Positions 3,169-37,383 of a DNA stretch of 64,000 nt are shown here, piece after piece. The stretch comes from an uncultured Bacteroidota bacterium (GTDB lineage: Bacteria; Bacteroidota; Bacteroidia; Bacteroidales; B18-G4). The stretch spans positions 672,139 to 736,138 of the forward strand of contig CAWCAB010000003.1 in assembly GCA_963793485.1 (NCBI GenBank). The letters run 5' to 3'. The notes under the pieces are model-generated. The model had not been told where the DNA came from. It saw only the letters and a list, made by a program, of their open reading frames with translations, and made no database searches. The position numbers and the translations under genes were made by a program. The number at the start of each line of letters is the position of its first letter. Positions within the stretch are counted from its first letter, which is position 1.

Positions 3169-3305
3169 CTTTAATGGTTTTTAGGTTGCAATAAAGATAA
3201 TAAAAACTTAGATGTGATGCAAGTAGATGTGTGTGTGAAGTGCCTAGAGTGCTTAGAGTTCTACTGTTTGCTATATACTGCTTAATTATTAGTGAATGAA
3301 CACTT

Positions 3306-6788: not shown

Positions 6789-7044
6789 GGTGTAAATTTT
6801 TAGATTGTTAATCAATAGCACGAATTTATACCAGTCAATAAATAAAAACACTGTGCATTTTACCATTGGTATGTCTCAAATTACCATTTACTGCCTTCTG
6901 CATACTGCCTGCCGCATACTGCTTACTATCTGTTTAACAGGCCCAACCGTTAACTTTTTCATCCCTGCCTTTAACTTGTTCCTCTATGAAAATTGTAACA
7001 GCTTTCATGGATTACAGTCTTTATACAAAACCAAGCTGGAAGTC

Positions 7045-9403: not shown

Positions 9404-9543
9404 GAGTGTTGAGCGTTGGGTGTTGAGTGAAAATACCTTGAATCTGTGGCTCCTACGATTCGAAACCCTTATAGAGTACTACTGACTACTGCTACTGCCT
9501 ACTGGCTTTCATTTCGTTACTCGATATTCGTTACTCGATACTC
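9404..9543. repeat. three heptamer sub-arrays filling a convergent spacer
   Basis: GAGTGTT GAGCGTT GGGTGTT GAGTGAA at 9404-9431. ..ACTGACT ACTGCTA CTGCCTA.. at 9474-9507. GTTACTC GATATTC GTTACTC GATACTC at 9516-9543, which runs into the sulfatase stop. Confidence 0.8.
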
Positions 9544-10942: not shown

Positions 10943-11671
10943 TTAATTTTTAGGTTTGCGAACAGTATATATCGCGGCAGATCCACCCATTAAGGGGTAG
11001 TGATTAAAATCATTAAAACCGCTGCCTTCGAGTAGTTGTTTTACCTCTTCAGGGCTATAATAATTCCTGGCGGATACGGCCAGATAATGATAGGCTTTTC
11101 GATGTCCAGACATGAGACCGCCAAGCCATTGTACCCATACTTTAAGATAGATCCGGAATCCAAATTTCATGATAATATTCTTTGGCTGGCTGGATTCTGC
11201 AATGATAAAGATCCCTCCGGGCTTCAGGGTACGCAGTATCTCCGAAAGGTATTGCCCGGCAAACTTATTCTTATATGTCAGGTTGCGAAAAGCAAAACCG
11301 ATGGTGGTCACGTTGAAATGATCTTTCTCAAATGGCAGATCAGCCGTGTCGGCGAGGACAAAGCTCGGCTTGTTACCATTTAATTTTTGTGCTTTTTCGG
11401 CGGCAACATCCAGCATAGGCTGGCTAAAGTCGCTGGCGGTGATCTCAATATTCTTATCAGCCATACGCGCGACACGAATTGCCAGGTCAGCGGTACCGGT
11501 ACAAATGTCTAATACTCTGTCAGGTTCCTCATGCAGGCATAGCTTCGTTGCCTTTTTTCGCCATCGCTCATCCTGTCCCAGGGTGACGATCCGATTCATA
11601 ATGTCATACCTGTCAGGGACCTCATTAAACATCCTGAATAAAGGCCTCCTGGCCGCTGCTTCCCTGTCCAT
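10943..11671 (-). CDS. ubiE: demethylmenaquinone / ubiquinone-type C-methyltransferase (UbiE/MenG family)
   Basis: 242 aa with the UbiE/COQ5 pattern (FNEVPDRYDIMNRIVTLGQDERWRK) and SAM motif VLDICTGTADLA..LKPGGIFIIAE. Confidence 0.8.
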   Translation of the reverse strand: MDREAAARRPLFRMFNEVPDRYDIMNRIVTLGQDERWRKKATKLCLHEEPDRVLDICTGTADLAIRVARMADKNIEITASDFSQPMLDVAAEKAQKLNGNKPSFVLADTADLPFEKDHFNVTTIGFAFRNLTYKNKFAGQYLSEILRTLKPGGIFIIAESSQPKNIIMKFGFRIYLKVWVQWLGGLMSGHRKAYHYLAVSARNYYSPEEVKQLLEGSGFNDFNHYPLMGGSAAIYTVRKPKN

Positions 11672-11682
11672 AAAGTTTTGAG

Positions 11683-11711
11683 TGTTGGGCCCCTCGACTT
11701 CGCTCGGGACA
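11683..11711. repeat. REP-like element GTGTTGGGCCCCTCGACTTCGCTCGGGACA
   Basis: A near-identical copy lies at 39501-39530. Both sit 12-22 nt upstream of a minus-strand start codon. Confidence 0.7.
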
Positions 11712-11726
11712 AGTTGTTGTGTTATG

Positions 11727-11757
11727 TTCGTTCTTCGTTCTTCGTTCTTCGTTATTC
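11727..11757. repeat. heptamer array (TTCGTTC)n
   Basis: TTCGTTC x3 then TTCGTTA. It overlaps the stop of the 11752-12441 gene. Confidence 0.85.
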
Positions 11758-12441
11758 AATATAGCCTCTAACCCCTACCACAAACGACAATACCTGTGAT
11801 GTTCCATCTATATCTGTATCCTGATAATATCCGCCCTGATTGATATTGTCGCCCAGTCCGAAATTATATCTGACATCAAAAAAGGTAGCTCCTTGATTGT
11901 CGGCGAAAGGAATTTCCGCTCCCAGGCCGAGTTTGATCCCGAAAGCTGTAGAGTTATAAGTGTCAGTTATTTTGTTATCGATGGTACCCTGTTCTCCATT
12001 TGAATAAGAATCGCCCACAACCCTCCCCCCGGTCAGGAAGGCGAAGCTGGGCCCAAGCAGGCCGTAAATATTAAAGGTTTCTTTTTCAATGAAATTATAC
12101 CTGAAAAGCAAAGGGATTTCAAAGTAGTGTGCACGAAGCGTCAGATCGGTGCCATTGGTTTTATCCCCTTCCTTATATTTGAATCCTCGTTGGTCGAAGT
12201 TCATCCCGATTTGCAGAGAGAAACGCCTGTTAAACCCATATTCGGCGAACAGGCCAACATTGTATGTCAGCCTTTTGCCAAAATCACCATCGAGGGGTTC
12301 CCCGCTTACTTTTGGGGTACTGATCCAGGCCAGGTTTAATCCGCCTGCTAATCCAAAATTCCAGCCTTCCTGGGCTTGTGATGACAGCTGAATGGCCATA
12401 AAGAAGGTGATAATTGCAAGTATTTTAGGAATGATTTTCAT
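11752..12441 (-). CDS. outer-membrane beta-barrel protein (porin-family-like)
   Basis: ORF 11752-12630, with the start moved to MKIIPKILAIITFFMAIQLSSQAQ (12441). The longer form would overlap the divergent gene. Gly/aromatic-rich strand pattern. Confidence 0.65.
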   Translation of the reverse strand: MKIIPKILAIITFFMAIQLSSQAQEGWNFGLAGGLNLAWISTPKVSGEPLDGDFGKRLTYNVGLFAEYGFNRRFSLQIGMNFDQRGFKYKEGDKTNGTDLTLRAHYFEIPLLFRYNFIEKETFNIYGLLGPSFAFLTGGRVVGDSYSNGEQGTIDNKITDTYNSTAFGIKLGLGAEIPFADNQGATFFDVRYNFGLGDNINQGGYYQDTDIDGTSQVLSFVVGVRGYIE

Positions 12442-12481: not shown

Positions 12482-13714
12482 ATGATTGAAACGGATGTAT
12501 GTATCATTGGAGCCGGCCCGGCAGGGGCTATGGCAGCATTGAGACTTGACAAGGATAATATCCCTTTTGTGATCCTTGATAAAGATGAGTTCCCCAGGCA
12601 AAAGATATGTGGAGATGCACTCAGCGGCAAGGTTCCTCATATCATCCGTAGACTTTCACCTGAGATGCTTGAACGCTTTGAAGAAAGCTGTGATCCGCTT
12701 CACTCTTATGGTATCCGCTTCATTGCCCCGGGTAATCATGTCTTTGATGTCCCATTCATAGAAGATTTTGATCCGGAAAAACATCCGGTTCCCGGCTATA
12801 CAGTGAAACGGGACTTACTCGATGCCTTTATGGTTGGGGAAGTGCGGAAAGTGGCCGGCGACCGGCTGATGCTCAATAGAATAGTTGAATCGGTCGATAG
12901 GGTAGGAGACGGCTTTCTGATTGAAACCACTGCGGAGAAAATTCATGTTAAATTACTGATTGATGCCTCCGGGACGTCATCAAATTTCAGTGTCAGCTAT
13001 CATAAACCTGATCCACAGCCAAATAAGACTGCCCTGGCTGTTCGTACATATTATAAGGGTGTTACATCCCTTCATCCCGGGAACTTTATAGAATTATATT
13101 TCCTTGAGGATATCCTGCCGGGATATTTCTGGCTGTTTCCCCTGCCGGATGGCATTGTTAATGTAGGTGTCGGGATCCGGAAAGATGTGGTGCTGAAGAA
13201 GAAGATCAATTTATCAGCGGTGATGGATGAAATTATTAATAAGCATCCCCTGGTGGCACCCAGGTTCACTGATGCAGAGATGCTGGGAAAACCGGCAGCA
13301 TGCCCACTTCCATTGGGTAATCCCCGATTCAGGATCTCCGGGCAAGCGTATATGCTGGCCGGTGATGCGGCCCACCTTGTCGATCCCCTTACCGGTGAAG
13401 GTGTTGGAAATGCACTATATAGTGGATATATTGCTGCCGAACAGGCCATCGACTGCCTGAGGGAAGATCGCTTTGATGAAGGTTTTATGAAATCGTATGA
13501 TTTACGTATCAAGCGCGTCCTTGGGAAGGAAATGAGCATAAGCAGCAACTTTCAGCGCATGCTGAAATATCCTCGCGTGGTAAAATGGATCGCAAAAAAA
13601 GCTGATGGCAACAAGCACATCCCAGGGCTTATGTCGTCCATGTTCACAGATTTGGATCACAGGAAAAAATTATTGAATCCCCTTTTTATCTTAAGAGTGT
13701 TATTGAATCGCTAA
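12482..13714 (+). CDS. geranylgeranyl reductase family FAD-dependent oxidoreductase
   Basis: 410 aa with FAD motif DVCIIGAGPAGAMAA and family pattern ..CGDALS.., ..MLAGDAAHLVDPLTGEGVGNAL.. Confidence 0.85.
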   Translation: MIETDVCIIGAGPAGAMAALRLDKDNIPFVILDKDEFPRQKICGDALSGKVPHIIRRLSPEMLERFEESCDPLHSYGIRFIAPGNHVFDVPFIEDFDPEKHPVPGYTVKRDLLDAFMVGEVRKVAGDRLMLNRIVESVDRVGDGFLIETTAEKIHVKLLIDASGTSSNFSVSYHKPDPQPNKTALAVRTYYKGVTSLHPGNFIELYFLEDILPGYFWLFPLPDGIVNVGVGIRKDVVLKKKINLSAVMDEIINKHPLVAPRFTDAEMLGKPAACPLPLGNPRFRISGQAYMLAGDAAHLVDPLTGEGVGNALYSGYIAAEQAIDCLREDRFDEGFMKSYDLRIKRVLGKEMSISSNFQRMLKYPRVVKWIAKKADGNKHIPGLMSSMFTDLDHRKKLLNPLFILRVLLNR

Positions 13715-13722
13715 TAAAACTG

Positions 13723-13827
13723 TTTGGAGCTTGGAGCTTGGAACTTATCAACGCTCGGCTTATTGAAGTTTCATCCGTATAGATCCACCACCTACAGCCC
13801 AACGCCCAAAGCCTAACGCCAACGCCT
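13723..13827. repeat. heptamer tracts at both ends of a convergent spacer
   Basis: TTTGGAG CTTGGAG CTTGGAA at 13723-13743 and CAACGCC CAAAGCC TAACGCC AACGCCT at 13800-13827. The middle is degenerate. Confidence 0.7.
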
Positions 13828-15217
13828 AATACCCCAATCTCAGTTTGGCTTCATCCTGATCCACTTTACTCCTTTGAAACGGGTGCGCTTCTGTATTAAA
13901 TATGTGGTCTTCAAAATCGAATGTGTCATCTTCATAAGAGAAAATGAGAAAGAAGTACTTCAGGGTTTCTGCAATGAAATATGTGGCCATGTAATCTTTC
14001 TGTTCCATGGTTTCCACATCTTCTACGGCAGTAAAGGCCAGGTCTGTTCGGCAATATTTATTAATGTCGGACCAGTATTGCTTTGCCATCTCCAGGTACT
14101 TTTTATCACCGGTGAAATGGTAGAGATAATAGGCTGATTCTATAATTTCCGGGTTCAGGTCGTATACCGGGTAATTGGCAGTCCCTTTTTTATAGTCATA
14201 AACAGTTGGCTCCAGGCCATACTTATTCCATACCCAGTCCCAGGTTTCCTGCAGTTTTTCTGCACGTTTTATATCTCCTGACAGAGAGAGTATGGCAGGA
14301 AAAAAGGCATCGTAAAGTGTGATCACCGAGCTGTTTAGCTCTCCGCTGTACATATTGCAGCGCCCATACCAGAGTTTGCCATCATATTTTTCTGCTATAT
14401 ATTTATTTATCGGGCCAATGCTCATATCCCAGATCTCACCCAGTTCGGGATCCCCGAACATCAGGTAGCTCTTATACAGGTATTCGTAGTATGAGTCCAC
14501 GCCAGCGCATATGTGACTGCTCTCCGAAACCCATACTCCGCTATTCACATCGATCACATCCCCGATCAAACCTATCTCTGACCTGCGGTCGAAGATGGCC
14601 TTGGTGGCTTTTTTCCCTGCCTGGTAATATTTAGGGTCACCGGTATAATAACTTAGCATGCCCATCTCAAATGTGTATGATCCGGCTTCGGCAACATTTA
14701 CGGTGTCTCCGCGAGTTTCTCCGGTTCGCAGGTTTACCCAGTAAGTAGGGATCCCGGTTTCTGTGTTAAATGCGGGCAGCATGCGATCGGCAAAATCGAC
14801 CGTCCTGGCAAGGATTTGTTCATTGCCAGAATACTCATACATAGATAAGAGCCCGCCCAGAATCCTTATGTTGACTTCGAATATTTTGACATAAATGTCC
14901 TTGTCAAAGTCAACCTCAGCAATTACATAATTTTCTATCTCCTTCGCGTAGTCTTCCAAACCAAGCACTTTCATGGTGCTGTATGCATCTATGGGGGAGA
15001 TGTAGAGGGATTCACTATACCAATCGTGGTATTCTCCGCTTAATGGTTTCAGTACATCATGACCCCATGCATATTTTTTATAGGATTCCCAGGTCCGATT
15101 GGTCTCGAATACCACCTCAGTGGCCAGGTCAGCTGTTTCAGCATGCTTCAATTCATTTTGTGACCTGCACGGACTTAAGATAGCAAGGGTAAAAATAATC
15201 AGGATTAATTTTTTCAT
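13826..15217 (-). CDS. glycoside hydrolase family 47 (class I alpha-1,2-mannosidase-like)
   Basis: 463 aa with a signal peptide. GH47-like blocks are FEVNIRILGGLLSMYEY, AEAGSYTFEMGMLSYYTGD, VDSYYEYLYK and YDLNPEIIESAYYLYHFTGD. Confidence 0.8.
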   Translation of the reverse strand: MKKLILIIFTLAILSPCRSQNELKHAETADLATEVVFETNRTWESYKKYAWGHDVLKPLSGEYHDWYSESLYISPIDAYSTMKVLGLEDYAKEIENYVIAEVDFDKDIYVKIFEVNIRILGGLLSMYEYSGNEQILARTVDFADRMLPAFNTETGIPTYWVNLRTGETRGDTVNVAEAGSYTFEMGMLSYYTGDPKYYQAGKKATKAIFDRRSEIGLIGDVIDVNSGVWVSESSHICAGVDSYYEYLYKSYLMFGDPELGEIWDMSIGPINKYIAEKYDGKLWYGRCNMYSGELNSSVITLYDAFFPAILSLSGDIKRAEKLQETWDWVWNKYGLEPTVYDYKKGTANYPVYDLNPEIIESAYYLYHFTGDKKYLEMAKQYWSDINKYCRTDLAFTAVEDVETMEQKDYMATYFIAETLKYFFLIFSYEDDTFDFEDHIFNTEAHPFQRSKVDQDEAKLRLGY

Positions 15218-15257
15218 CTGCTTTAGATTAGTATTACAAATATCATAAAATAATCAA

Positions 15258-15327
15258 CACAGCTCCCAGCTATCAGCTCCCAGCCCACAGCCTACTGTCA
15301 ACTGTCAACTGTCAACCGTCAACTGAA
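15258..15327. repeat. heptamer array, 10 units
   Basis: CACAGCT CCCAGCT ATCAGCT CCCAGCC CACAGCC TACTGTC AACTGTC AACTGTC AACCGTC AACTGAA. Confidence 0.85.
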
Positions 15328-15482
15328 ATGTCCGCCCCCGTACACCAGCTGTCCCCCACAGAACACAATTGCCGGGCAGAAGGATGGAGTAGAAATGTAA
15401 GGCATTTTAAACTAGGATGTTATGCAAAATGGCATGGATTTAGAAAGAGGGTATAACATTGCACAATGTAACAAAGACCAGT

Positions 15483-17888
15483 ATGTTTAATAGTTATTTT
15501 AATTCCACTTTCAGAAGTCTCTGGAAAAACAGGCTTTACACTTTTATCAATATATTCGGGCTGGCTGTAGGCCTTGCCGGCTTCATGCTGATCATGATCT
15601 ATATCAGCGGAGAACTGAGCTATGACAAGCATCACAAAGATTCTAAGCGTATCTATCGGGTGGCTATGGACCTTGAAATGTCGGGAAATATCACCAAAGC
15701 AGCTGTAAGTGGAGGTATGCTGGGCATCCTCATGCATGATGAACTTAAGGAGGTGGAAGCCTATACCAGGATGGTGCATTATCCCCGTTCGGTATTGTTT
15801 AGTTACGAGGATCAAAAAATATATTTTGATGATATCCTTTATGCTGATTCATCTTTTTTTGAGTTTTTTAATTACGAAACCTATGCCGGCGATCCGGCCG
15901 ATGCACTGCGAGAGCCTTATTCTCTCGTACTCACTAGGTCAGGAGCAGAACGTATTTTTGGTTCTGAAGACCCTATAGGGAAATCCATCCTTTGGAACGG
16001 CAAGGACACATATATCGTCAGGGCATTGATAGAAGATCCTGTTCAGGCATCTCACATTCATTTCGAGGCACTTGTCTCATTCTCTACACTTGAAAGTATA
16101 GAGCCCTACAAGACTTACATCAATACCTTATATGCATTTGTAACTTTCAATTATGTGAGGTTATATGAGGGCTTTGGCCCGGAGGATGTTAAGGCGCCGC
16201 TGGATTCACTGGTCATGCGTCATATGGGTGAGCGCATGAAAGACAGCGGAGCCGGATTCAGCTTTTATCTTCAGCCTGTTCGTGACATATACCTGCACTC
16301 TCACCTGCGACATGAATTCAAAGCCAATGGGAATATAAGTAACCTGTATATATTTTCTGCCATTGCCATATTTATATTACTTATTGCATGCATAAATTTT
16401 ATTACGCTTTCCACGGCCCGCTCGGTGAAAAGATCCCTTGAGGTAGGGGTGAGGAAAGTGTTTGGTGCTGAAAAAAGGAATCTGATATTGCAGTTCCTGT
16501 TCGAATCTATGGTCATGGCATTCATCAGTATGCTTTTTGCCATTGCTCTTGTTGAATTTATGGAACCCTCGATAGAACAGTTGTCGGGTGCCGCCATATC
16601 GATTAGGATGGGCGATATCCGTCATTACTTGCTGATGCTCGTCGGTCTAACAGCCCTGGTTGGACTGCTCTCGGGATTATATCCTGCTTTTGTGATTTCT
16701 GCCTACAGTCCACTGGGCATCATACAGAAAAGAATATCGGCAGGCTATAGATCATCATGGTTCAGGAATTCTATGGTTGTCCTTCAATTTCTGATCACAA
16801 TCTTTTTGGTTAGTGGCACCATGATCATTTACATGCAACTAAATTTTATCAAGAATAAAGATACCGGGATCTCCCTGGAGGATCGCATTATTGTTCCCCT
16901 TCGGGGAAGTGCTATGATCAATAAGTATGAGGATGTCAAGACAGGCTTCTTACAGGTCAAGGGTGTTGAGGCAGTCACAGCCTCCTCAACCTATCCCGGG
17001 AAGTTTCGGCAAAGGGCAGGATTTTATCCTGAAGGCTCATCGCGCAATGATATGTGGATGTTACAGAATGTACAAGTTGATCATAACTATTTTGACGTGA
17101 TGGATGTCGATCTGGTAGAAGGTCGTGGATTCAGCGAAAATCCTGATATAGATAGTCTCAATGTGATTGTGAATGAAGCCCTGGTAGCTGAAGCAGGTTG
17201 GGAAAACCCCATTGGAAAGTTTGTGGGGATCCCGATGGGGGAGGAAAGCGCCGATATTAAGTTAAACGTGATCGGGGTGGTGAGTGACTTCAATTATGCC
17301 TCCCTGCATGAAAGTGTCAAGCCTCTATTGATCATGCATGATCCGCAACGCCTGTCGAACATCACGGTCAAGATTAGCCCAGCCGGATTTACTTCCAGCA
17401 TAAATGACCTGGAACAGGAATGGGATAGATTTTTCCCGGCTCAGCCATTCACTTTCCTGGTTCTGGAAGATGATTTTGCCCAACTGTATAAAGCCGATAT
17501 TCGCCTTTCAGAAGTCTTCATCTGGTTTACACTCCTGGCCATATTTATTGCTTGTATGGGATTGTTTGGCTTATCGTCCTTTATCACATCTCAGCGTACC
17601 AGGGAGATCGGGATCAGAAAGGTTCTGGGGTCGTCGGTAGGACAGATCATTTATATGTTCATACGCTCATTTGCTATCCTGGTGCTGATATCTGCCGTGT
17701 TGGCCGTTCCTCTATCGTGGTATGGCATGCATGAGTGGCTGCAAAACTTTGCCCATCAAACCCCGATGCACTGGTGGATATTCCCTGCAGCAGCTATACT
17801 GGCCCTGCTGGTATCTGCTGCAACAGTATTTCTGCAGTCGTTCAGGGCAGCCAGCAAAAACCCGGTTGATGCTATCCATTGGGAATAA
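15483..17888 (+). CDS. ABC transporter permease, FtsX/MacB-like (paralog of 7045-9399)
   Basis: ORF 15459-17888, with the start probably at MFNSYFNSTFRSLWKNRLYT (15483). Two FtsX modules (..STARSVKRSLEVGVRKVFGA.., ..TSQRTREIGIRKVLGS..). Confidence 0.85.
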   Translation: MFNSYFNSTFRSLWKNRLYTFINIFGLAVGLAGFMLIMIYISGELSYDKHHKDSKRIYRVAMDLEMSGNITKAAVSGGMLGILMHDELKEVEAYTRMVHYPRSVLFSYEDQKIYFDDILYADSSFFEFFNYETYAGDPADALREPYSLVLTRSGAERIFGSEDPIGKSILWNGKDTYIVRALIEDPVQASHIHFEALVSFSTLESIEPYKTYINTLYAFVTFNYVRLYEGFGPEDVKAPLDSLVMRHMGERMKDSGAGFSFYLQPVRDIYLHSHLRHEFKANGNISNLYIFSAIAIFILLIACINFITLSTARSVKRSLEVGVRKVFGAEKRNLILQFLFESMVMAFISMLFAIALVEFMEPSIEQLSGAAISIRMGDIRHYLLMLVGLTALVGLLSGLYPAFVISAYSPLGIIQKRISAGYRSSWFRNSMVVLQFLITIFLVSGTMIIYMQLNFIKNKDTGISLEDRIIVPLRGSAMINKYEDVKTGFLQVKGVEAVTASSTYPGKFRQRAGFYPEGSSRNDMWMLQNVQVDHNYFDVMDVDLVEGRGFSENPDIDSLNVIVNEALVAEAGWENPIGKFVGIPMGEESADIKLNVIGVVSDFNYASLHESVKPLLIMHDPQRLSNITVKISPAGFTSSINDLEQEWDRFFPAQPFTFLVLEDDFAQLYKADIRLSEVFIWFTLLAIFIACMGLFGLSSFITSQRTREIGIRKVLGSSVGQIIYMFIRSFAILVLISAVLAVPLSWYGMHEWLQNFAHQTPMHWWIFPAAAILALLVSAATVFLQSFRAASKNPVDAIHWE

Positions 17889-18035
17889 GATGATGGGTTG
17901 TTGACACTGGTTGCTGGTTACTGGATACTGGACACTGGATCCTGGATCCTGGATCCTGGTTGCTCGTTACTCGTTACTCGTTACTCGATACTTGATACTC
18001 AATACTCAATACTCAATACTCAATACTCATTTCTC
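17889..18035. repeat. heptamer array, 21 units, forming the entire 147-nt spacer
   Basis: ATGATGG GTTGTTG ACACTGG TTGCTGG TTACTGG ATACTGG ACACTGG ATCCTGG x3 TTGCTCG TTACTCG x3 ATACTTG ATACTCA x5 TTTCTCT (phase 17890-18036). Confidence 0.9.
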
Positions 18036-18374
18036 TCACCCCAGCCTGCTTCCCAACTCGGCTTCCTGTTCGGGAACTGCAAGTATAACGCTTCCGTCCT
18101 GCTGGTAGAATCCTGTAAGCAGGAATTCCGACATAAATGGGCCAATCTGTTTCACAGGAAAATTTATCACTCCCATGATCTGTTTGCCCAGCAGATCCTC
18201 TCTTGTGTAATGGTCTGTAATCTGTGCACTTGACTTTTTGATCCCTATTTCAGGCCCAAAATCTGCGCTGACGATGTAGGCCGGCTTCCTGGCTTCAGGA
18301 AAATCTTTTACCTCGATTATTTTTCCAAGCCTTAGCTCTATCTTTTCGAAATCATTCCAGGAAATCTCTTGCAT
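18036..18374 (-). CDS. csaA: tRNA-binding protein (CsaA/EMAP OB-fold)
   Basis: ORF 18036-18434, with the start moved to [22 protein letters not shown] (18374). The CsaA-type pattern continues to ..FLLTGF. Confidence 0.8.
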
Positions 18375-18493
18375 ATGATTTTCATTTTTAAGTAATAAAA
18401 ATAGTATATGTATATCAAAATAAAACAAAAACAATGATCAAAATTGCAACCCTTGCTTATTAATTTGTCATTAATAGCAAACGATGTCAATTT

Positions 18494-20884
18494 ATGAGAG
18501 CAAGCCTTGCCATTATTGTTTTTAGCCTGATAATTCATGTTTCAAATGCCTTCGGACAGGAACTTCACCAAAATATCAGAGGTACTGTAACTGATAGAGA
18601 ATCAATGGTGCCTTTGCCCGGGGCAACAGTTATTGTTGAAGGTTCTGATCCCCTGATCGGGACTACAACTGCTCTGGATGGAACATTTTGCCTGCATGAT
18701 GTCCCCGTAGGCCGTCATACTATTGCTGTTTCATATATTGGTTATGAAACAATCATTATCCCAGAGATACTTGTTTCTTCTGCCAAGGAAACCATCCTGA
18801 CCTTTACCTTGAATGAAGAGATAAATACCCTGAATGAGGTTGTTGTAAAACCCACGAGGGAAAAGGGCAAACCGGTAAATGATATGGCCATGATCAGTGC
18901 CAGGTCTTTCACCGTGGAGGAAACCAAGCGCTACCCTGCAGCAATCAGTGACCCGGCCAGGATGGCCAAGAACTTTGCAGGTGTTACCGGTGGTGATGAT
19001 GCAGGCAATGAGATCATTATAAGAGGAAATTCACCTAGCAGCATGCTCTGGCGCCTGGAGGGGGTGGAGATACCAAGCCCCAACCATTTTTCTGAGGAGG
19101 GTTATTCAAGTGGATTTGTCAGCATTTTGAGTTCAAATCTGATCGACAACTCAGATTTTATTACAGGAGCTTTCCCGGCTGAATATGGTAATGCTCTTTC
19201 AGGTGTTTTCGATATCAACTTGCGTAAGGGAAATAATATGAAGCGGGAAACAGCGATACAGATCGGGGTGATGGGAACCGATATTGCAGTGGAAGGGCCT
19301 TTTAAGAAAGGATATGGCGGTTCTTACCTCCTGAACTACCGCTATTCCACTCTTGGCCTCATGGATAAAATGGGACTGATACCAGGCGCGGGGGGTATCC
19401 CCGAATACCAGGACCTCTCTTTCAAATTTAATCTGCCTGCCGGAAAAGCCGGAGTATTTTCGCTCTGGGGGATAGGAGGAAAAGCAAAATCTGTTGATAA
19501 AAATGAAAATGACCCAAGCGAGTGGGAAACATATTGGGATCGCATTGGCTTTGAATTCAAAACTGGCATGGGGGCCGCGGGCATCACCCATACCTGGTTC
19601 CCCGATGAAAAGTCATTTTTAAAGACAACCATCGCCCTGACAGGTGAAAAATCAGGGGAGAAACAAGAAATTTATACTGCACATGCCCAGGGGCCGGAAT
19701 ACACTCTTGGGGATCCCGATCCGTACTCAGACAGTGATTATAATAAAACTTCCATTAAGGCCAATGTTCTGTTTAATAGAAAAATAAATTCCCGTTTCTC
19801 CTTTCGCTCCGGTCTTACATACACAAACATGAAATACAATATGAAGGCCGAAGGTGTTGATGAAGAGGATGAGTTCCAGTGGAGGTCATGGATCAAGCAG
19901 GAAGGATCTACATGGATGATGCAGGGTTTTACATCGGCAAAGTTTCGCTTAAGCAGGAAAGTATCGGCAACCGGTGGATTGCACCTGCTGTATTTCGGAC
20001 TCAATAATGAATTTTCTGTTGAGCCACGCATGGCAATTAAAATGCAGTGCTCCCCAACCCAGTCAATCGGCATTGCCGCAGGCATTCATAGCCACCATGA
20101 TGCCCTGACCACCTATTTTATGCAGGTTCCTTTTGATGAAAATACCTACGTCACCCCAAACACCGACCTCAGCCTTAGAAAAGCACTTCATGTAGTACTA
20201 TCGCATGACCATATGCTATCGGAAGACCTGCGTTTACTTGTTGAAGTTTATTACCAGTATCTCTGGAACCTTCCGGTAGCATTTGATACGGCATCAACTT
20301 TTTCTTCTGTCAATGGTAACTGGGATGAGCATTATGTGGATACCCTCGTAAGCGATGGGATTGGCAGGAATTTTGGACTGGAAATGACCCTGGAGAAATT
20401 CTTCACTAGGCGTTTCTATTTTCTTGTCACTGGCTCTATGTTTGACTCCAAATACAGGGCCTCAAATGGAAAATGGTACAACACCCGATATAATGTTCAT
20501 TTTGCCACCAACATCGTAGGAGGCAAGGAATTTGCAGTTGGTAAGGACAAGAATAACTTTATTGGATTGAATCTGAAGCTAAGCTGGGCAGGAGGGATGC
20601 GCGACACCCCCATTGATCTTGAAAAATCAATCGAAGAGGGATCTGTGGTGATCAAGCAGGACGAAAGATATGAACTCAGCCATCAGGATTATTTCCGTAC
20701 CGACTTTGGCATAAGCTACCGTATGAACAGAAAGCGTGTGTCGCATACCTTCAGCCTTGATATACAGAATATTACAAATCACCAGAATGAGATGTATGAA
20801 TATTATGATCCTGAAAATTTCAATATTAAAACCGAATATCATATGGGGATACTGCCGGTGCTAAATTATAAAATAGAGTTCTAA
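18494..20884 (+). CDS. TonB-dependent receptor with CarboxypepD_reg-like N-domain
   Basis: 796 aa with a signal peptide. N-domain is IRGTVTD..PLPGATVIVEG..DGTFCLHDVPVGRHTIAVSYIGYE, followed by a plug and a long barrel ending ..LNYKIEF. Confidence 0.8.
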   Translation: MRASLAIIVFSLIIHVSNAFGQELHQNIRGTVTDRESMVPLPGATVIVEGSDPLIGTTTALDGTFCLHDVPVGRHTIAVSYIGYETIIIPEILVSSAKETILTFTLNEEINTLNEVVVKPTREKGKPVNDMAMISARSFTVEETKRYPAAISDPARMAKNFAGVTGGDDAGNEIIIRGNSPSSMLWRLEGVEIPSPNHFSEEGYSSGFVSILSSNLIDNSDFITGAFPAEYGNALSGVFDINLRKGNNMKRETAIQIGVMGTDIAVEGPFKKGYGGSYLLNYRYSTLGLMDKMGLIPGAGGIPEYQDLSFKFNLPAGKAGVFSLWGIGGKAKSVDKNENDPSEWETYWDRIGFEFKTGMGAAGITHTWFPDEKSFLKTTIALTGEKSGEKQEIYTAHAQGPEYTLGDPDPYSDSDYNKTSIKANVLFNRKINSRFSFRSGLTYTNMKYNMKAEGVDEEDEFQWRSWIKQEGSTWMMQGFTSAKFRLSRKVSATGGLHLLYFGLNNEFSVEPRMAIKMQCSPTQSIGIAAGIHSHHDALTTYFMQVPFDENTYVTPNTDLSLRKALHVVLSHDHMLSEDLRLLVEVYYQYLWNLPVAFDTASTFSSVNGNWDEHYVDTLVSDGIGRNFGLEMTLEKFFTRRFYFLVTGSMFDSKYRASNGKWYNTRYNVHFATNIVGGKEFAVGKDKNNFIGLNLKLSWAGGMRDTPIDLEKSIEEGSVVIKQDERYELSHQDYFRTDFGISYRMNRKRVSHTFSLDIQNITNHQNEMYEYYDPENFNIKTEYHMGILPVLNYKIEF

Positions 20885-20914
20885 AGAAGCTTGCTCTTAA
20901 ATTTTAAACTTCAC

Positions 20915-20962
20915 ATTCATATTCTTATTCTTATTCTTATTCTTATTCTTATTCTTATTCCT
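20915..20962. repeat. hexanucleotide microsatellite (ATTCTT)6 with flanking variants
   Basis: ATTCAT, then ATTCTT x6 at 20921-20956, then ATTCCT. Confidence 0.9.
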
Positions 20963-22216: not shown

Positions 22217-22257
22217 GCGTGAGGTGTGGGGCTTGGGGTTTGGAGTTTGAGGCTCCA
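22217..22257. repeat. heptamer array
   Basis: GGCGTGA GGTGTGG GGCTTGG GGTTTGG AGTTTGA GGCTCCA. Confidence 0.75.
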
Positions 22258-22285
22258 ATAACCATTTAGCATTGTAGCCCTGTTG

Positions 22286-23020: not shown

Positions 23021-23154
23021 TATGGGTTCTTGGTACTGGTTCCTGGGAATTTATACATCTATACATATAGCCATGTAGCCCTTTAACCCTTTAACCATTC
23101 CCCACGCCTGTCCTAGGCTATGTCGAAGGTCCCAATGCCTAACGCCCAACGCCA
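23021..23154. repeat. mixed short-period tracts
   Basis: TATGGGT TCTTGGT ACTGGTT CCTGGGA at 23021-23048. CCCTTTAA x2 at 23079-23094. AATGCCT AACGCCC AACGCCA at 23134-23154. Confidence 0.55.
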
Positions 23155-23284
23155 AAATTGAACATCTAAGATACTCATTTGTTAATTATCTGAGCTGCTT
23201 ATTGACTAATAGTATGCTGAATATGTATCTTTATTGTTTCAGGCGATTGCAATTAAACCTAACATAAATTAAATTCCGAAAACT

Positions 23285-25014: not shown

Positions 25015-25063
25015 GAAGTGTTGGATGTTGGGTGTTGGGTTTTGAGTGTTGAATGTTGGATTA
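25015..25063. repeat. heptamer array
   Basis: GAAGTGT TGGATGT TGGGTGT TGGGTTT TGAGTGT TGAATGT TGGATTA. Confidence 0.8.
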
Positions 25064-25110
25064 GTTTAAAGATAAACAATTAAAAATATTAATAGTTGTT
25101 CACTTTACTT

Positions 25111-25145
25111 CGGCACTAGCAACTAGGCACTAGCAACTATGCACT
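25111..25145. repeat. heptamer array (14-nt super-period)
   Basis: CGGCACT AGCAACT AGGCACT AGCAACT ATGCACT. It contains the response-regulator stop codon. Confidence 0.8.
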
Positions 25146-25905
25146 ACTTTGATATCCGGCTCATATGCTCCAGAAAAAGGTCTTTCTTCCCCCTCGAAAT
25201 GGGAACGGTACTTTTATCTGTCATCTCAACATAGCCTCCTTCGTGTCTGATATACTTCTTTACATGTTCCAGGTTGATCAGGTGGGAATTGTGGGTGCGA
25301 AAAAAGTTTCTGTCGGAAAGGAGTTCCTGGTATTCCTTGAGGTTTCGGGAAACGAGATGCTTGATATCTCCTTCCAGGAAGAACCACGAATAGCTGCGGT
25401 CGGCCTCGATGCGGATGATTTCTTTGGTGTTCAGGTATTCCATCCCGTTGGAGGTAGGAATTGCAAGCTTGGATGGCTGTGTGGTTTGCAGATTTTCAAA
25501 CAGGGTGTTGAAATTCATATTCCGGCCTTTCTTATCCTTTCTGGCCTCTTCAACCCTTTTTACGGCTTCGATAAACTCATTGATATTGATTGGCTTGAGG
25601 ATGTAATCAACCGCTGAATACTTTATAGCCCTGATGGCATAATGATTGAACGCGGTAATAAAGATCACATCGAAACTCTTTTCAGGGAAGGCGGCAAGCA
25701 GGTCGAAACCACTGCCATGTGGCATCTCTACATCCAGAAATACAAGGTCGGGCTTCTCATTATTGATCACCTCTATGCCTTCGATGGCAGAATATGCCTT
25801 GCCGATAACCTTTATATTCGGGCAATATTCTTGTGCAATGGATTCAATAAAACTCACTGCATCCTGCTCATCATCAACGATTACTGTTCTTAGTATGTTA
25901 TCCAT
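25144..25905 (-). CDS. LytTR-family response regulator
   Basis: 253 aa. Receiver domain (VIVDDE..DLVFLDVEMPHGSGFDL) plus a C-terminal LytTR DNA-binding domain. Confidence 0.9.
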   Translation of the reverse strand: MDNILRTVIVDDEQDAVSFIESIAQEYCPNIKVIGKAYSAIEGIEVINNEKPDLVFLDVEMPHGSGFDLLAAFPEKSFDVIFITAFNHYAIRAIKYSAVDYILKPININEFIEAVKRVEEARKDKKGRNMNFNTLFENLQTTQPSKLAIPTSNGMEYLNTKEIIRIEADRSYSWFFLEGDIKHLVSRNLKEYQELLSDRNFFRTHNSHLINLEHVKKYIRHEGGYVEMTDKSTVPISRGKKDLFLEHMSRISK

Positions 25906-25923
25906 TTGTTTTTATTTTGATCA

Positions 25924-26028
25924 TGGATATTAGATCCTGGATACTGGATACTTGGCTCTGGGTTCTAGGTCTTGGGCCCTGGTATTTTGCCCCGCGCCTC
26001 ATGCCTCAAACCTCAAACCTCAAGCCTA
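25924..26028. repeat. heptamer array, 15 units, between histidine kinase and response regulator genes
   Basis: TGGATAT TAGATCC TGGATAC TGGATAC TTGGCTC TGGGTTC TAGGTCT TGGGCCC TGGTATT TTGCCCC GCGCCTC ATGCCTC AAACCTC AAACCTC AAGCCTA. Confidence 0.85.
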
Positions 26029-27963
26029 TGTTATTATCGGAATGCAAATCTCTACCCTCGTACCACTGGCATTCCCTTCATCATCCTCCATATCTGTATA
26101 ATCCACCTTCATGCTCTTCCCATATAAAGAATTTACCAGCTTCAATCTTGATTCTGTAATGCTGGTCCCTAATGACCGGTGGTTTTCTTTTCTTCCATTT
26201 TTGATCTCCATGGCCTTCTTTCTGCCAACGCCATTATCCTCGATGCTACACAATATGATATCCTTATCCAGCTTCAATTCTATTTTGATATATCCCTTTC
26301 CTTCTTTGTGCATCAGTCCGTGCCCGATGGCGTTTTCAACAAAGGGTTGTATTAGCATGGTTGGAATTTTATACATATAGGTGTCGATCTCCTCATCTAC
26401 ATCTATTTCCCAACTGAATTTCTTTTTAAATCTGAGTGATTCGAGTTCCAGGTAGAGTTTGAGTGCATCTAACTCTTCAGCAATGGGTATGGACGGGTGT
26501 TCACTGTTTTCCAGGGTCTTTCTGATGAGCTTTGCAAACTTGGTCATATAATCGTTAGAGGCAATTCGGTCGTTCTGAAAAACATAATACTGTATAGAAT
26601 TCAGCGTATTGAAAATGAAATGAGGATTCATTTGTGTACGCAGGTTTTTCTGCGTGAGATTGGAGATCCTGTGATTCATGTCCTCAAGCCTCTGCTTCGA
26701 TCTGAGCCGGCTGCTTCTGATAAACATGATGGCTAGTGCTATGATCACAAGCACCAGACCGGCAAATCCATACATCAGGTAATTATTTCTTTGCAAGCGA
26801 ACGTGCATCAGTTCAAGCTCCTGCTCACTTTTTTCTCTTTCATGTTGCGTACGGGCTTCAAGCAGGCGGCGGTTATAATCCTCTGACATCAATGAATCAT
26901 TGTAAGCAGAATGAAGCATGAAATTATCGTATGCCTTTTCAAACCTGCCCATATTGGCATACATGGCACTGATATCTTTGTATAACCAGGAAAGATTGTA
27001 AACATCACTGATCTCTTTTGATTCTTCAATACTGAGGTTATAATACTCTATAGCTTTCTCAAAATAATTCCAGTCGCGATAGATGTTTCCAATGTTTCCC
27101 AGGCAGTTTGCGATCAGGTTTTTTTGATCAACAGCTTTTGATATTTCCAGGTCTTTAAGGTAAACTTCCAGTGAGTTTTCCAGGTCACCCATCTGATAAT
27201 ATCCCCAGGCGATCCTGTTCAGTGTGTTAGCCTGGCGGAGCGAATCACCGCTCATCTTTGCCAGTTCCACCAGCTGATAATATATATCAATGCCTTCCTG
27301 GTATTTCTCCTGTTCCCTTTTTACATCACCCAGCCTGCTCAGGATATAAAATGTGATATACCTTTCCTTATTTACATTTACCAACTCCAGGTATCGTTCA
27401 TAATAGAGCTCTTCCAGGGGATAATCCCCCAGGTTATAGTATACTCTTCCCAGACCCAGGTTTGCATCGGCCATTTCATCCTGCATGTCAAGATCCTGAG
27501 CCATGATCTTAGCCTTTTCAAAAGCTTCAATACTCTTCGTAAACTCCCCCTGCCTGAACAAGTACCATCCCTTGTTCAGGACTAGTCGGGCTGCATCAGC
27601 CGGGTCTTTACTGTTTTCCAGGATCTTGATGATAGTAGGGAAATATGTAATCGACTGCTTGTAATTCGCCAGTCCGTCATTGGCATTGACCATGAGGCGG
27701 TAAAGACCAACATCGGGAGTTATACCTATCTTATTTGAAAGCTCTATTCCCTTTTCTGCATAATAAATGCTGGAGTCCATCTTGTGGTTGTTCAGGTGAT
27801 GGCGGGAAAGTTCCTTATAACAGTCGATACGGATGCTATCCGATCTCGTGCTCGACAGCACGTCAAAGAGGCTGTCGGTTTGGGCTCCGGCATCCTGTGC
27901 GCAAGACATAAGTATGAAACCTGCGAGTATCCTGAAAGTAATGTTTCTTAAAATTGAGATCAT
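26026..27963 (-). CDS. TPR-repeat sensor histidine kinase (LytS/YehU type)
   Basis: 645 aa. Signal peptide, TPR region and one TM (YLMYGFAGLVLVIIALAIMFI). His_kinase motif NPHFIFNTLNSIQYYV, then an HATPase region. Confidence 0.85.
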   Translation of the reverse strand: MISILRNITFRILAGFILMSCAQDAGAQTDSLFDVLSSTRSDSIRIDCYKELSRHHLNNHKMDSSIYYAEKGIELSNKIGITPDVGLYRLMVNANDGLANYKQSITYFPTIIKILENSKDPADAARLVLNKGWYLFRQGEFTKSIEAFEKAKIMAQDLDMQDEMADANLGLGRVYYNLGDYPLEELYYERYLELVNVNKERYITFYILSRLGDVKREQEKYQEGIDIYYQLVELAKMSGDSLRQANTLNRIAWGYYQMGDLENSLEVYLKDLEISKAVDQKNLIANCLGNIGNIYRDWNYFEKAIEYYNLSIEESKEISDVYNLSWLYKDISAMYANMGRFEKAYDNFMLHSAYNDSLMSEDYNRRLLEARTQHEREKSEQELELMHVRLQRNNYLMYGFAGLVLVIIALAIMFIRSSRLRSKQRLEDMNHRISNLTQKNLRTQMNPHFIFNTLNSIQYYVFQNDRIASNDYMTKFAKLIRKTLENSEHPSIPIAEELDALKLYLELESLRFKKKFSWEIDVDEEIDTYMYKIPTMLIQPFVENAIGHGLMHKEGKGYIKIELKLDKDIILCSIEDNGVGRKKAMEIKNGRKENHRSLGTSITESRLKLVNSLYGKSMKVDYTDMEDDEGNASGTRVEICIPIIT

Positions 27964-28181: not shown

Positions 28182-28254
28182 GCGGAAATAGCTCAGTTGG
28201 TAGAGCATTAGCTTCCCAAGCTGGGGGTCGCGGGTTCGAGTCCCGTTTTCCGCT
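28182..28254 (+). tRNA. tRNA-Gly (anticodon CCC)
   Basis: Hand-folded cloverleaf. Acceptor GCGGAAA/TTTCCGC, D arm GCTC-AGTTGGTA-GAGC, anticodon arm TTAGC-TTCCCAA-GCTGG, variable GGGTC, T arm GCGGG-TTCGAGT-CCCGT, discriminator T. No encoded CCA. Confidence 0.9.
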
Positions 28255-28255
28255 C

Positions 28256-28290
28256 AGACCTCATGGCTGTTTGGCTGTGAGGTCTTTTTT
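28256..28290 (+). terminator. intrinsic terminator after tRNA-Gly
   Basis: AGACCTCA...TGAGGTCT (8-bp stem) followed by TTTTTT. Confidence 0.8.
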
Positions 28291-31464: not shown

Positions 31465-31500
31465 AAAGGGATGCTGTTGATAAACGGCGTCCCTTTTTTT
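31465..31500 (+). terminator. intrinsic terminator after the S9 peptidase gene
   Basis: AAAGGGATGC..(12-nt loop)..GCGTCCCTTT with a T7 run. Confidence 0.7.
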
Positions 31501-31580: not shown

Positions 31581-31650
31581 CATACTGTCTATTGTCAACT
31601 GCCTACTGCCTACTGTCTACTGTCAAGCAACCCAGCACCCAGCACCCAGC
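31581..31650. repeat. heptamer array, 10 units
   Basis: CATACTG TCTATTG TCAACTG CCTACTG CCTACTG TCTACTG TCAAGCA ACCCAGC ACCCAGC ACCCAGC. Confidence 0.85.
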
Positions 31651-31660
31651 AACAATTTAC

Positions 31661-31672: not shown

Positions 31673-32593
31673 ATGCCTGCAATCTACACCATCGGCGAAA
31701 CAGTCTACGACATCATCTTTAAAAATGATGAGCCTGTTACTGCTAAAGCAGGTGGAACCATGCTGAATACTTCAGTCTCACTTGGCCGCCTTGGCTTGCC
31801 GGTGTCATTTGTGAGTGAATATGCTTCCGACAGGATAGGAGATATCATTAATGGTTTTCTTGGTGATAATGGTGTAGATACAAAACATATCTACAGGTAC
31901 CGGGACGGAAAAACACCTGTTTCCCTGGCCTTTCTTAACGAACAGAATGATGCCCGATATTCCTTTTATAAACTATATCCCGACCGGCGCCTTGAAATTA
32001 AGATTCCGGAATTTTACCGGGCTGATATCCTTCTTTTCGGGGGATTCTATTCATTAATGGCAGAAGTACGCACCTCTTTGATCTCATTTGTGCGTGCAGC
32101 ACGGGATGCGGGAGCCGTCATAATATATGATCCAAACATTCGCAGTCCTCATAAAGATGAAATAGACGAGCTCAGGGATCTGGTCTTTGAGAATATCAGT
32201 CTTTCCAACATAGTGCGCGGATCAGATGAAGATTTCAAAACTATCTTTAATATCTCTGACGGAAAAGAAGCTTATAAATTGCTTACGAATCATGGGTGTG
32301 AGTATCTCATCTACACTAAAAGCAATATAGGCGTGGAGATCCATTCCCCGGAGGGGATGGTGGAGGTTCCAGTACAGAAAGTAGCAACAGTGAGTACCAT
32401 CGGAGCTGGCGACAGCTTCAATGCAGGCTTGATCTATGAACTTTTCCGGGCTCAAATGCAGTCAGGGGATTTTAAAGAAGATGATCTGGGAAAAATGGTG
32501 AAAACAGCCATCACCTTCGGCTCGCATGTATGCACCCATTTTGAGAACTATATTAGTCAGGAGTTTGCTGCGAAATTGATGCTGGATGCTTGA
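31673..32593 (+). CDS. PfkB-family carbohydrate kinase
   Basis: 306 aa with motifs GGTMLNTSVSLGRLG and GAGDSFNAG. Confidence 0.85.
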   Translation: MPAIYTIGETVYDIIFKNDEPVTAKAGGTMLNTSVSLGRLGLPVSFVSEYASDRIGDIINGFLGDNGVDTKHIYRYRDGKTPVSLAFLNEQNDARYSFYKLYPDRRLEIKIPEFYRADILLFGGFYSLMAEVRTSLISFVRAARDAGAVIIYDPNIRSPHKDEIDELRDLVFENISLSNIVRGSDEDFKTIFNISDGKEAYKLLTNHGCEYLIYTKSNIGVEIHSPEGMVEVPVQKVATVSTIGAGDSFNAGLIYELFRAQMQSGDFKEDDLGKMVKTAITFGSHVCTHFENYISQEFAAKLMLDA

Positions 32594-32659
32594 TGCTGGA
32601 TGCTTGATGCTGGATACTAGATGCTAGATGCTGGATCCTGGATCCTGGTTACTGGTCAC
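32576..32659. repeat. heptamer array, 12 units, starting inside the PfkB CDS
   Basis: TTGATGC TGGATGC TTGATGC TGGATGC TTGATGC TGGATAC TAGATGC TAGATGC TGGATCC TGGATCC TGGTTAC TGGTCAC. The TGA stop at 32591-32593 lies in unit 3. Confidence 0.9.
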
Positions 32660-32669
32660 TTATTATTGC

Positions 32670-35715: not shown

Positions 35716-35721
35716 TTAAAT

Positions 35722-35742
35722 ATCGAATATCGAGTACCGAAT
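35722..35742. repeat. short heptamer array
   Basis: ATCGAAT ATCGAGT ACCGAAT, the same words as in the T9SS CTD arrays. Confidence 0.7.
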
Positions 35743-37126: not shown

Positions 37127-37217
37127 AGTAGTTGAATTGTAGTGTAAAAATAGTCTAAATCGCCAATCTTTCAAATAATTATGTATGTTTGATGAAATAG
37201 ATGAAGCAACAGCTGAA

Positions 37218-37377
37218 GGGGGTTACTCGCTTCGCTCGAAATGACAGGTCTTAGGTTTTTAAGGGGAAAATGGGGACGCGCAGCACGCAGCGCGTCCCCA
37301 TTTTCCTATATTAACAAATATAATTTGTCATCTCGAAGGAGTCCTGAGTGGGGATGAAGGGCGACTGAGAGACCCCC
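37218..37377. repeat. composite palindromic element: inverted REP-like arms flanking a perfect 17-bp hairpin
   Basis: Left arm GGGGGTTACTCGCTTCGCTCGAAATGACAGG (37218-37248). Hairpin GGAAAATGGGGACGCGC-agcacgca-GCGCGTCCCCATTTTCC (37265-37306). Right arm TGTCATCTCGAAGG...GAGAGACCCCC (37326-37377). Confidence 0.7.
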
Positions 37378-37383
37378 AGGAGA

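Follow-up and report, generated by a model that had tools for sequence, protein, structure and literature searches.

Tandem arrays of 7-nt units have been known since about 1990 in cyanobacteria, where the short tandemly repeated repetitive (STRR) sequences were first reported in Calothrix PCC 7601 (cited in PMC4692102), and as of 2007 they were the commonest class of bacterial long simple-sequence repeats (SSRs). As Mrazek (2007) is cited in PMC4679880 and PMC4692102, heptanucleotide units were the commonest among the long SSRs of 5-11 nt in prokaryotes, with a scattered phylogeny; units that are not multiples of 3 were kept out of coding DNA, and polymerase slippage was proposed. The ten richest genomes, as PMC4679880 relays them, belonged to Burkholderia, cyanobacteria, actinobacteria and Xanthomonas, with no Bacteroidota in that account. 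Here heptamer arrays are described in a 64,000-nt stretch of DNA (the window) from an uncultured Bacteroidales bacterium (contig CAWCAB010000003.1), among them a spacer at 17889-18035 that is made of heptamers throughout (the flagship array). The window arrays are real and unusually dense; they belong to a known class of repeat and extend it to a new lineage. They are probably (about 0.7) STRR-like heptanucleotide long SSRs that slippage creates and reshapes where they stand and that are tolerated away from genes and promoters. Like the long SSRs of Mrazek (2007), they are heptameric, patchy by lineage and near-absent from coding DNA.

The window arrays resemble the cyanobacterial STRR in having tandem 7-nt units at many dispersed intergenic loci and several unit types per genome, so the comparison with STRR drawn in an earlier note on this DNA holds for their appearance. 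It does not extend to the units themselves. The STRR1-3 units CCCCAGT, TTGGTCA and CAACAGT were not found in the window as tandem dimers in any rotation or on either strand, and the few units one mismatch away were near chance; with no canonical STRR unit, the arrays are therefore STRR-like and not STRR. Unlike the STRR, they drift strongly within one array, and they come from a Bacteroidales-type, probably anaerobic bacterium and not from a heterocystous cyanobacterium. The window encodes five C-terminal sorting domains of the type IX secretion system (T9SS), a SusC-like receptor and 800-aa FtsX permeases, and the nearest proteins were labelled as those of Bacteroidales metagenome-assembled genomes (MAGs).

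The closest behaviour is that of the G-rich heptamers of Xanthomonas (GGGAATC) and Nostoc (GGGGAYT) (Rehm et al. 2015, PMC4692102). About 90% of these are intergenic, at ~28 nt from the 5'-neighbouring open reading frame (ORF), often overlapping stops and rarely lying between divergent genes, and their G-rich strand has the nearest ORF on its 5' side whatever the orientation of that ORF; the arrays vary in length and sequence between close Xanthomonas species, and some occur as inverted pairs (PMC4692102). The window arrays share the strand rule, the intergenic bias, the closeness to the 5'-neighbouring ORF, the stop overlap, the scarcity in divergent spacers, the variation between relatives and some inverted pairs. 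The common ORF-relative strand rule thus supports a common cause across phyla, for which the present lineage gives a third, very dense clade for comparison. There are differences as well: dozens of units occur here, against one dominant quadruplex-capable G-rich unit there, and array positions are fairly conserved between species in PMC4692102, whereas array presence varies between relatives here. Tandem dimers of GGGAATC or GGGGAYT were absent from the window, and the flagship units hold no G run longer than GG; window units without GGG runs therefore have no quadruplex potential.

A partial description of a Bacteroidota equivalent exists, contrary to the earlier note, which knew of none. MacGregor (2015, PMC4679880), the only Bacteroidota heptamer report found in the literature searched, recorded direct repeats of the heptamer TAACTGA in Beggiatoaceae, in cyanobacteria and in five Bacteroidetes, in spacers that also held "other heptamer direct repeats" and "larger assemblages of heptamer repeats". 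As with the window arrays, the TAACTGA repeats are absent from the orthologous spacers of close relatives, and contigs end inside them (Elizabethkingia). They mostly precede start codons by a few nt, in forward orientation, whereas the window arrays are mainly just downstream of stops, and the window holds zero TAACTGA tandem dimers. That study followed one unit and did not take in the whole heptamer repertoire.

The flagship array

The flagship array fills the whole spacer between two convergent genes, one for an 801-aa FtsX/MacB-type permease (plus strand, ending at 17888) and one for a 112-aa tRNA_bind-domain protein (minus strand, ending at 18036), as the earlier note had placed them, and orthologues terminate at identical residues. 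Its 147 nt (21 x 7) are 21 heptamers, all in one register: GATGATG, GGTTGTT, GACACTG, GTTGCTG, GTTACTG, GATACTG, GACACTG, GATCCTG x3, GTTGCTC, GTTACTC x3, GATACTT, GATACTC, AATACTC x4 and ATTTCTC. The unit list of the earlier note was right apart from a phase off by one base. Units 1-2 are degenerate, the left half is of GWTNCTG type and the right half of GWTACTC/AATACTC type, and the unit positions T3, C5 and T6 are nearly invariant. The identity at lags 7, 14 and 21 was 0.81, 0.77 and 0.72, against 0.15-0.28 at other lags.

The drift of units along the array, which had been read from the sequence by eye, was confirmed by their distances. The mean Hamming distance rose from 1.35 between neighbouring units to 3-5 between units more than 10 apart, and the sum of the adjacent distances was 27, against a mean of 49.6 with permuted unit order; 0 of 20,000 permutations reached 27.

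Folded as RNA, the two strands of the flagship gave z = -0.49 and -0.58 against dinucleotide shuffles, which is no excess structure, and a terminator-like site (G+C-rich stem-loop and T run) was sought in 17889-18035 and not found. Sigma-70 promoter-like matches were no commoner in it than in shuffles, with a consensus that is not that of Bacteroidota. An ORF of 111 aa (17898-18233, plus strand) runs through the array and was dismissed as a gene, since it is antisense to the conserved tRNA_bind gene.

Period-7 signal in intergenic DNA

The lineage was represented by the 64 kb of the window and by some 65 kb from relatives. With a strict tract detector (at least 12 of 14 lag matches), 22 period-7 tracts were found in the window against 0.2 in shuffles, and the other periods within 3-13 gave 0-3 tracts each, so the excess is specific to period 7. 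Tandem Repeats Finder returned 61 rows, mostly of period 7, 14 or 21. The lag-7 autocorrelation that the earlier note had proposed as a check was computed over the 37 window spacers of at least 30 nt, and the signal stood out clearly: the identity was 0.364 against 0.268 in shuffled DNA (z = 18), with z = 13.8, 7.7 and 5.9 at lags 14, 21 and 28. It was still 0.354 without the flagship, and it was 0.247 in coding DNA. In several arrays the higher-order periods of 14, 18 and 21 surpassed the base unit in regularity (Tandem Repeats Finder), so blocks of two or three units were also duplicated.

The share of bases in strict tracts was 10.6% for intergenic and 0.23% for coding DNA, and a relaxed threshold, applied as a second setting, brought about 15% of intergenic bases into tracts, with 88% in two convergent spacers. 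The arrays were thus rightly described as a period-7-specific intergenic feature, and the statement that intergenic DNA is built from them went too far. All tracts given as examples by the earlier note were recovered by Tandem Repeats Finder or the detector, except that its tract at 47951-48030 is periodic at 47948-47968 only.

Coverage by arrays depended on the type of spacer, with 32% in convergent, 13-16% in tandem and 6% in divergent spacers. An array lay within 50 nt of 16 of the 39 gene 3' ends (41%) and of 5 of the 34 gene 5' ends (15%; Fisher p = 0.019), and seven stop codons fell inside a tract. In this lineage, then, about 40% of gene 3' ends are followed by heptamer arrays, which take up as much as 88% of a spacer. 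Internal coding arrays were confined to three paralogous T9SS C-terminal domains. With regard to phase variation, in which a repeat in an ORF or promoter switches genes, typically surface ones, by its unit number, most arrays stand 3' of the stops of ordinary metabolic genes; three are in frame in the C-terminal domains of T9SS cargo, and a few are upstream of starts.

Independent contigs and the question of a carrier

Short-read contigs from the Logan assemblies of run ERR11523668 matched the window exactly at 13307-15309 and 18002-20948, and a third matched 15301-17978 with one single-nucleotide difference. They hold whole arrays, those at 13720-13829 among them, and all three break off within a long array. 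Of the flagship, 124 of the 147 bases were confirmed in this way; the central 23 nt (17979-18001) are not independently bridged. The contigs of the relatives L001, L083 and L091-L094 also start or end within arrays. Contigs of the organism and its relatives thus break at these sites, and MAGs of such lineages would be fragmented there.

An assembly artefact was excluded, because independent short-read contigs reproduced the arrays and because relatives from other samples carried arrays in the same spacers. Dispersal by a mobile element of the MITE type (miniature transposable elements with inverted repeats) or the repetitive extragenic palindromic (REP) type could account for identical units at unlinked loci in both orientations. 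The similarity between arrays of the same unit stops at the array edges, with no conserved flanks or terminal inverted repeats, so that there is no sign of a carrier element, and no transposase was found nearby among the Pfam-annotated genes. Both mobile dispersal and artefact are taken as highly improbable explanations.

Turnover and density among relatives

The spacer between the FtsX and tRNA_bind genes changes greatly among relatives. Against the 147 nt and 21 heptamers of the window, it has 48 nt with six GATATTC-type units in L083/L084, whose FtsX protein is 97% identical, 16 nt and no array in L086-L094 (FtsX protein identity 67%), and 143 nt with other repeats and AGTTCAA heptamers in L085 (70%). 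With 48 nt at 97% identity and no array at 67%, there is no conserved requirement at this locus; no conservation there points to a required function.

In the spacer between the GH47 and FtsX genes, the window and L083 agree at most positions outside the array, and the array block is remodelled, with ACTGTCA expanded in the window and CCCCATC/CACCTCA expanded in L083. The spacer 3' of the GH47 gene has the same pattern of a remodelled array between mostly identical non-array flanks. At a still finer scale, strains with identical FtsX protein differed by 18 nt, which is two 9-mer units. The polymorphism of unit number in orthologous spacers that the earlier note had foreseen was therefore present both between strains and between species.

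Strict tracts occurred at 3.4 per 10 kb in the window and at 3.1 in close relatives, against 0.39 in 1.16 Mb of diverse bacteria (the loci of tRNA_bind homologues in many phyla, from a search of genome contigs) and 0.34 in 1.04 Mb of metagenome-contig loci encoding a MiaB-like homologue (50-81% identity). The density in this lineage is about ten times that of the other sampled bacteria, and a few other loci were array-rich (L099, L112 and L144). The trait is thus lineage-restricted and patchy.

Slippage, shared units and strand polarity

The formation of the arrays could proceed in four steps. A short heptamer duplication would first arise in non-coding DNA. In-register slipped-strand mispairing or unequal recombination would then add or remove one or several units; an indel pattern of this kind is seen in the higher-order steps of 7, 14, 18 and 21 nt, in the 18-nt difference between strains and in the wholesale gain or loss of units between close species. 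Point substitutions would next be copied to neighbouring units, which would give the drift along the array, with neighbours most alike, that was observed. Finally, selection may keep coding DNA free of arrays, and divergent promoter spacers largely so; few arrays are found in either. A 7-nt unit breaks the frame unless three are added together, and the arrays therefore accumulate directly past stops and in convergent spacers.

Four points weigh against slippage as the whole account. It leaves the preference for 7 nt without explanation; for this preference PMC4679880 and PMC4692102 cite the idea that it stems from how long a stretch of DNA the active site of the polymerase holds. Identical units turn up again at unlinked loci, where plain local slippage would amplify arbitrary local heptamers, and six units are found in close relatives too, for the most part at sites that are not orthologous (0.78 expected; p = 7e-5). 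The nearer ORF was on the 5' side of the G-rich strand in 21 of 26 arrays (p = 0.0025), a polarity that a neutral process does not predict. In the GH47/FtsX spacer of three lineages, lastly, the units change but the array remains C-rich on one and the same strand, which could mean that selection maintains it. The shared vocabulary and the ORF-relative polarity go beyond plain local slippage.

The vocabulary was seen in the exact tandem dimers of the window, which fall into 24 canonical unit classes. Four of these recur at unlinked loci, and 17 pairs of units are within one mismatch of each other, against 5.45 +/- 2.6 expected; the recurrence of a vocabulary of units, which the earlier note had proposed, is therefore real. 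A universal heptamer vocabulary was rejected, since the overlap with the units in 2.2 Mb of unrelated loci was at chance (3 against 3.1). As a separate observation, the exact 21-mer (ACTCAAC)3 is present in 12 viral contigs (IMG/VR; L176-L189) with a GC content of 32-61%, and (GTTACTC)3 in 2; several of these contigs bear additional heptamer arrays.

The polarity was independent of ORF orientation, and on the G-rich strand the median distance to the ORF was 16.5 nt on the 5' side against 81 nt on the other. In relatives, the nearer ORF was on the 5' side in 13 of 17 arrays. The usual order within a spacer is a G/T-rich array and then a C/A-rich array, on either strand, and for this reason units are seen in both orientations. 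The occurrence in both orientations reported earlier is thus correct, with the qualification that orientation is not random and is set by polarity relative to the nearest ORF. Two simple causes were rejected. Stops in all three frames of the sense strand did not explain the polarity on inspection, many units next to stops (TTGGAGC, GTTGGGC, GATCCTG and GTTACTG) being without a stop triplet, and an effect of the replication strand was dismissed because G-rich and C-rich arrays alternate on the plus strand within single spacers.

The vocabulary and the polarity might be what a dedicated system leaves behind, be it a factor that binds single-stranded nucleic acid 7 nt at a time or a polar process by which arrays are written or lengthened, though this is unlikely. 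If it were true, the arrays of Bacteroidota, cyanobacteria and Xanthomonas would form one mechanistic class of hairpin-free gene-boundary elements, for example insulators against incoming transcription. Functional explanations, whether as insulators resembling Rho utilization (rut) sites, as binding platforms or as hairpin arms, are less likely than slippage.

Rut sites, at which Rho is loaded, are C-rich, G-poor and unstructured, and typical rut regions are longer than 21-35 nt. Seen as polar elements at the RNA level, the arrays would present a C-rich, G-poor, unstructured, rut-like strand to transcription that comes towards an ORF from outside, and Rho would end read-through or antisense transcripts entering the 3' end of the gene; the flagship would then be a bidirectional terminator without a hairpin, with the terminator of each gene in the distal half of the spacer. 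Such a role is unlikely, although the polarity (21:5 in the window, 13:4 in relatives) agrees with it, a matching strand rule has been published for the Xanthomonas and Nostoc heptamers (PMC4692102), and 41% of gene 3' ends are no more than 50 nt away from an array. In the sense of the adjacent gene, the arrays of convergent spacers have more G than C, with a skew of +0.43 against +0.08 in non-array spacer DNA; this gene-sense G/C skew alone is weakly significant, and the formulation by nearest ORF holds. The flagship is unstructured on both strands, and terminator-like hairpins were not above shuffles, with a clear one at few genes only. Against a rut-like role stand the reduction of the flagship to 48 nt in the 97%-identity relative and its absence at 67%, the many arrays of just 21-35 nt, below the typical rut length, and a skew that is weak or reversed in several arrays, such as 50024-50100 and 15258-15326. 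A polarity irrespective of ORF orientation is, moreover, not required by a role in a single transcript.

The strict 7-nt register could instead reflect a binding platform, on which each monomer of a protein (candidates are of the oligonucleotide/oligosaccharide-binding (OB) fold, cold-shock or S1 type) would occupy about 7 nt of RNA or DNA in single-stranded form, and the binding would set mRNA 3'-end stability or translation. The conserved core positions T3, C5 and T6 of the flagship, the strand polarity and the lineage-specific vocabulary, which recurs across unlinked loci and is common with close relatives only, are in line with this. One CspB per heptamer was argued for the TAACTGA repeats (PMC4679880), and a heptamer-binding protein was speculated for Nostoc (bioRxiv 10.1101/2022.06.06.494920). 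At least 24 unit classes in 64 kb, in about 10 unrelated groups, are hard to fit to one specific binder, however, and the arrays are not conserved at orthologous sites, so that this role appears very unlikely.

Inverted array pairs and folding

In a minority of spacers an array and a degenerate inverted partner fold together. On the minus strand of 25906-26025 (z = -2.7; 0 of 200 shuffles folded as well), the GCCTCAA array (UUGAGGY) pairs with a degenerate C-rich heptamer tract at ~25953-25977 to form an imperfect long hairpin. In 47919-48022 and 22217-22285, too, the spacer holds an array and a degenerate inverted copy with which it pairs. The clearest fold was that of a Bacteroidales MAG (L001, 1615-1760), in which inverted GAGTGTT-type and ACTCAAC-type arrays form a continuous stem of ~26 bp with a loop of ~57 nt (z = -8.6).

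These cases, the 78% complementarity of 18-57 and 128-167 and the order of G-rich and then C-rich arrays within spacers would suit arrays that serve as hairpin arms, a G/T-rich array pairing with an inverted C/A-rich partner of the same spacer as a terminator or cruciform. The flagship and most of the large arrays (32575-32660, 50024-50100, 31583-31656 and 15258-15326) have no inverted partner, however, and fold like shuffles, and array-bearing spacers were on average no more structured than array-free ones (mononucleotide shuffles). Hairpin arms would account for a subset at most and are quite unlikely as the explanation of the arrays. The earlier statement that the arrays are not hairpin terminators accordingly stands array by array, the flagship included, although in some spacers inverted array pairs form long stems. 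A scan with Rfam gave a tRNA only and no match at the arrays.

Other arrays of the window

The spacers of convergent genes hold several further arrays. Three stand in the spacer at 9404-9543, namely GAGTGTT (9404-9429), ACTACTG (9478-9504) and TTCGTTACTCGATA x2 (9513-9543). At 13720-13829 a TTGGAGC array (13720-13748) lies past the stop of the plus-strand gene and a GCCCAAC array (13796-13829) past that of the minus-strand gene. About 12 units of GATGCTG, GATGCTT and GATCCTG (32575-32660) cover another convergent spacer and span the stop at 32593.

Other arrays also touch or closely follow stops. The TTCGTTC array (11723-11762) spans the stop of the minus-strand gene ending at 11752, and the GTTACTC array (51560-51597), whose unit also occurs in the flagship, spans the stop of a minus-strand gene at 51586. 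In 25924-26029 a TGGATAC array (25924-25955) is followed by a GCCTCAA array (25995-26029), which spans the stop at 26026, and about 10 units of TAGGCAT, TAGGCAC and TGGGCAC (50024-50100) span the stop at 50097. The GGGGCTT/GGTTTGG array (22223-22250) begins 6 nt past the stop of a plus-strand gene; AGTTTGG/AGTTCTT units followed by CACACCT units (54733-54771) begin 5 nt past another. Four arrays share the tandem-gene spacer 39528-39777: GAATGTT (39528-39556), TTCAGAT-type (39567-39602), GAGTAAC (39664-39698) and ACTCAAC (39743-39777), the last of which spans the stop at 39774.

In divergent spacers, a CAGCTCC/CAGCCCA array followed by ACTGTCA x4 (15258-15326) occupies the GH47/FtsX spacer, where it is remodelled in the close relative L083, and a CCCAACG array was found at 23131-23157. 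TACTGTC/ACTGCCT arrays and then ACCCAGC x3 (31583-31656) lie between an intrinsic-terminator-like hairpin (31465-31496) and a gene start at 31673. The AATGCTA-type array (128-169) has the degenerate inverted partner at 18-57 mentioned above, and the short GGTACTG/GGTTCTG array (47948-47968) is a hairpin arm with a degenerate partner in the same spacer. A TGTTGGA array (25017-25062) and a GGCACTAGCAACTA array with a 14-nt higher order (25112-25146) make up 25017-25146, and an AGTTCAA-type array was found at 51245-51282.

Coding arrays of ATCGAAT type were found in the T9SS C-terminal sorting domains, at 1242-1284 (minus strand) and in paralogous copies at 2330-2372 and 4800-4846. In these minus-strand genes the units, of ATCGAAT/GAGTAAC type, translate to a RYSIFDI-like 7-aa repeat. 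They recur in intergenic arrays at 35716-35742, where the AATATCG array is the sole intergenic copy of a unit also present in the three T9SS coding regions, and, as the reverse complement, at 9513-9543.

The period is not strictly 7 in every family, as there are 9-mer arrays that share a core with heptamers: the ACTCTAGGC array at 43264-43322, with an 18-nt higher order, has the TAGGCAC core in common with the heptamer array at 50024-50100. Related 9-mer arrays stand at 63554-63590, 51205-51240 and 3239-3259. A hexamer array, ATTCTT x7.7 (97% matches; 20915-20960), lies past a TonB-dependent receptor gene, and the Logan contig L081 ends within it.

Arrays can distort ORF calls, since arrays without a stop codon lead to longer ones. 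In L086-L094 a polymorphic 9-mer array lies ~90 nt before the tRNA_bind start, and an 18-nt difference between strains makes the called ORF 152 aa long in some and 112 aa in others. In the window, a TACTGCC/14-nt array (6889-6927) falls in the 5' end of an ORF called from 6871, whose MacB domain match starts at residue 78; its true start is probably downstream, with the array upstream of the gene.

Other elements and gene content

A non-array element of 50 nt occurs twice, at 11670-11719 and 39489-39538, with 84% identity and an identical core, CCCTCGACTTCGCTCGGGAC. Both copies are directly upstream of minus-strand starts (those of a UbiE-type methyltransferase and a MiaB-like enzyme), and each adjoins a heptamer array. 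The element showed no excess fold stability, and no copies were found among the fetched loci. A sequence resembling its core, CGAGCGAAGCGAG, is held by the spacer 37127-37383, which is strongly structured (RNA fold z = -6.8) and has a near-perfect 20-nt inverted repeat (37265-37284/37287-37306) nested in a longer palindrome, with no Rfam match; this spacer may be a MITE-like insertion or a terminator.

The region 47067-63554 encodes hydrogenase functions, including hypA, a cobW/HypB-type GTPase, hypD, hypE-like and hypF genes, Hdr/Mvh-like iron-sulfur flavoproteins, MvhD, the large subunit of a NiFe hydrogenase and a maturation protease. The spacers of its tightly packed operons hold no arrays. 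Judged from this gene content, the lifestyle of the host is probably anaerobic and hydrogen-cycling. Imperfect direct repeats (TCATGCTCATGATGATGGTGATG-like) at 47700-47850 lie in the cobW/HypB-type gene; their coding strand has many His codons, and as a coding repeat they have nothing to do with the heptamer arrays.

At 28182-28285 a tRNA-Gly(CCC) gene is directly followed by a terminator with a 13-bp hairpin and a T run, in a spacer that appears as divergent on the ORF map.

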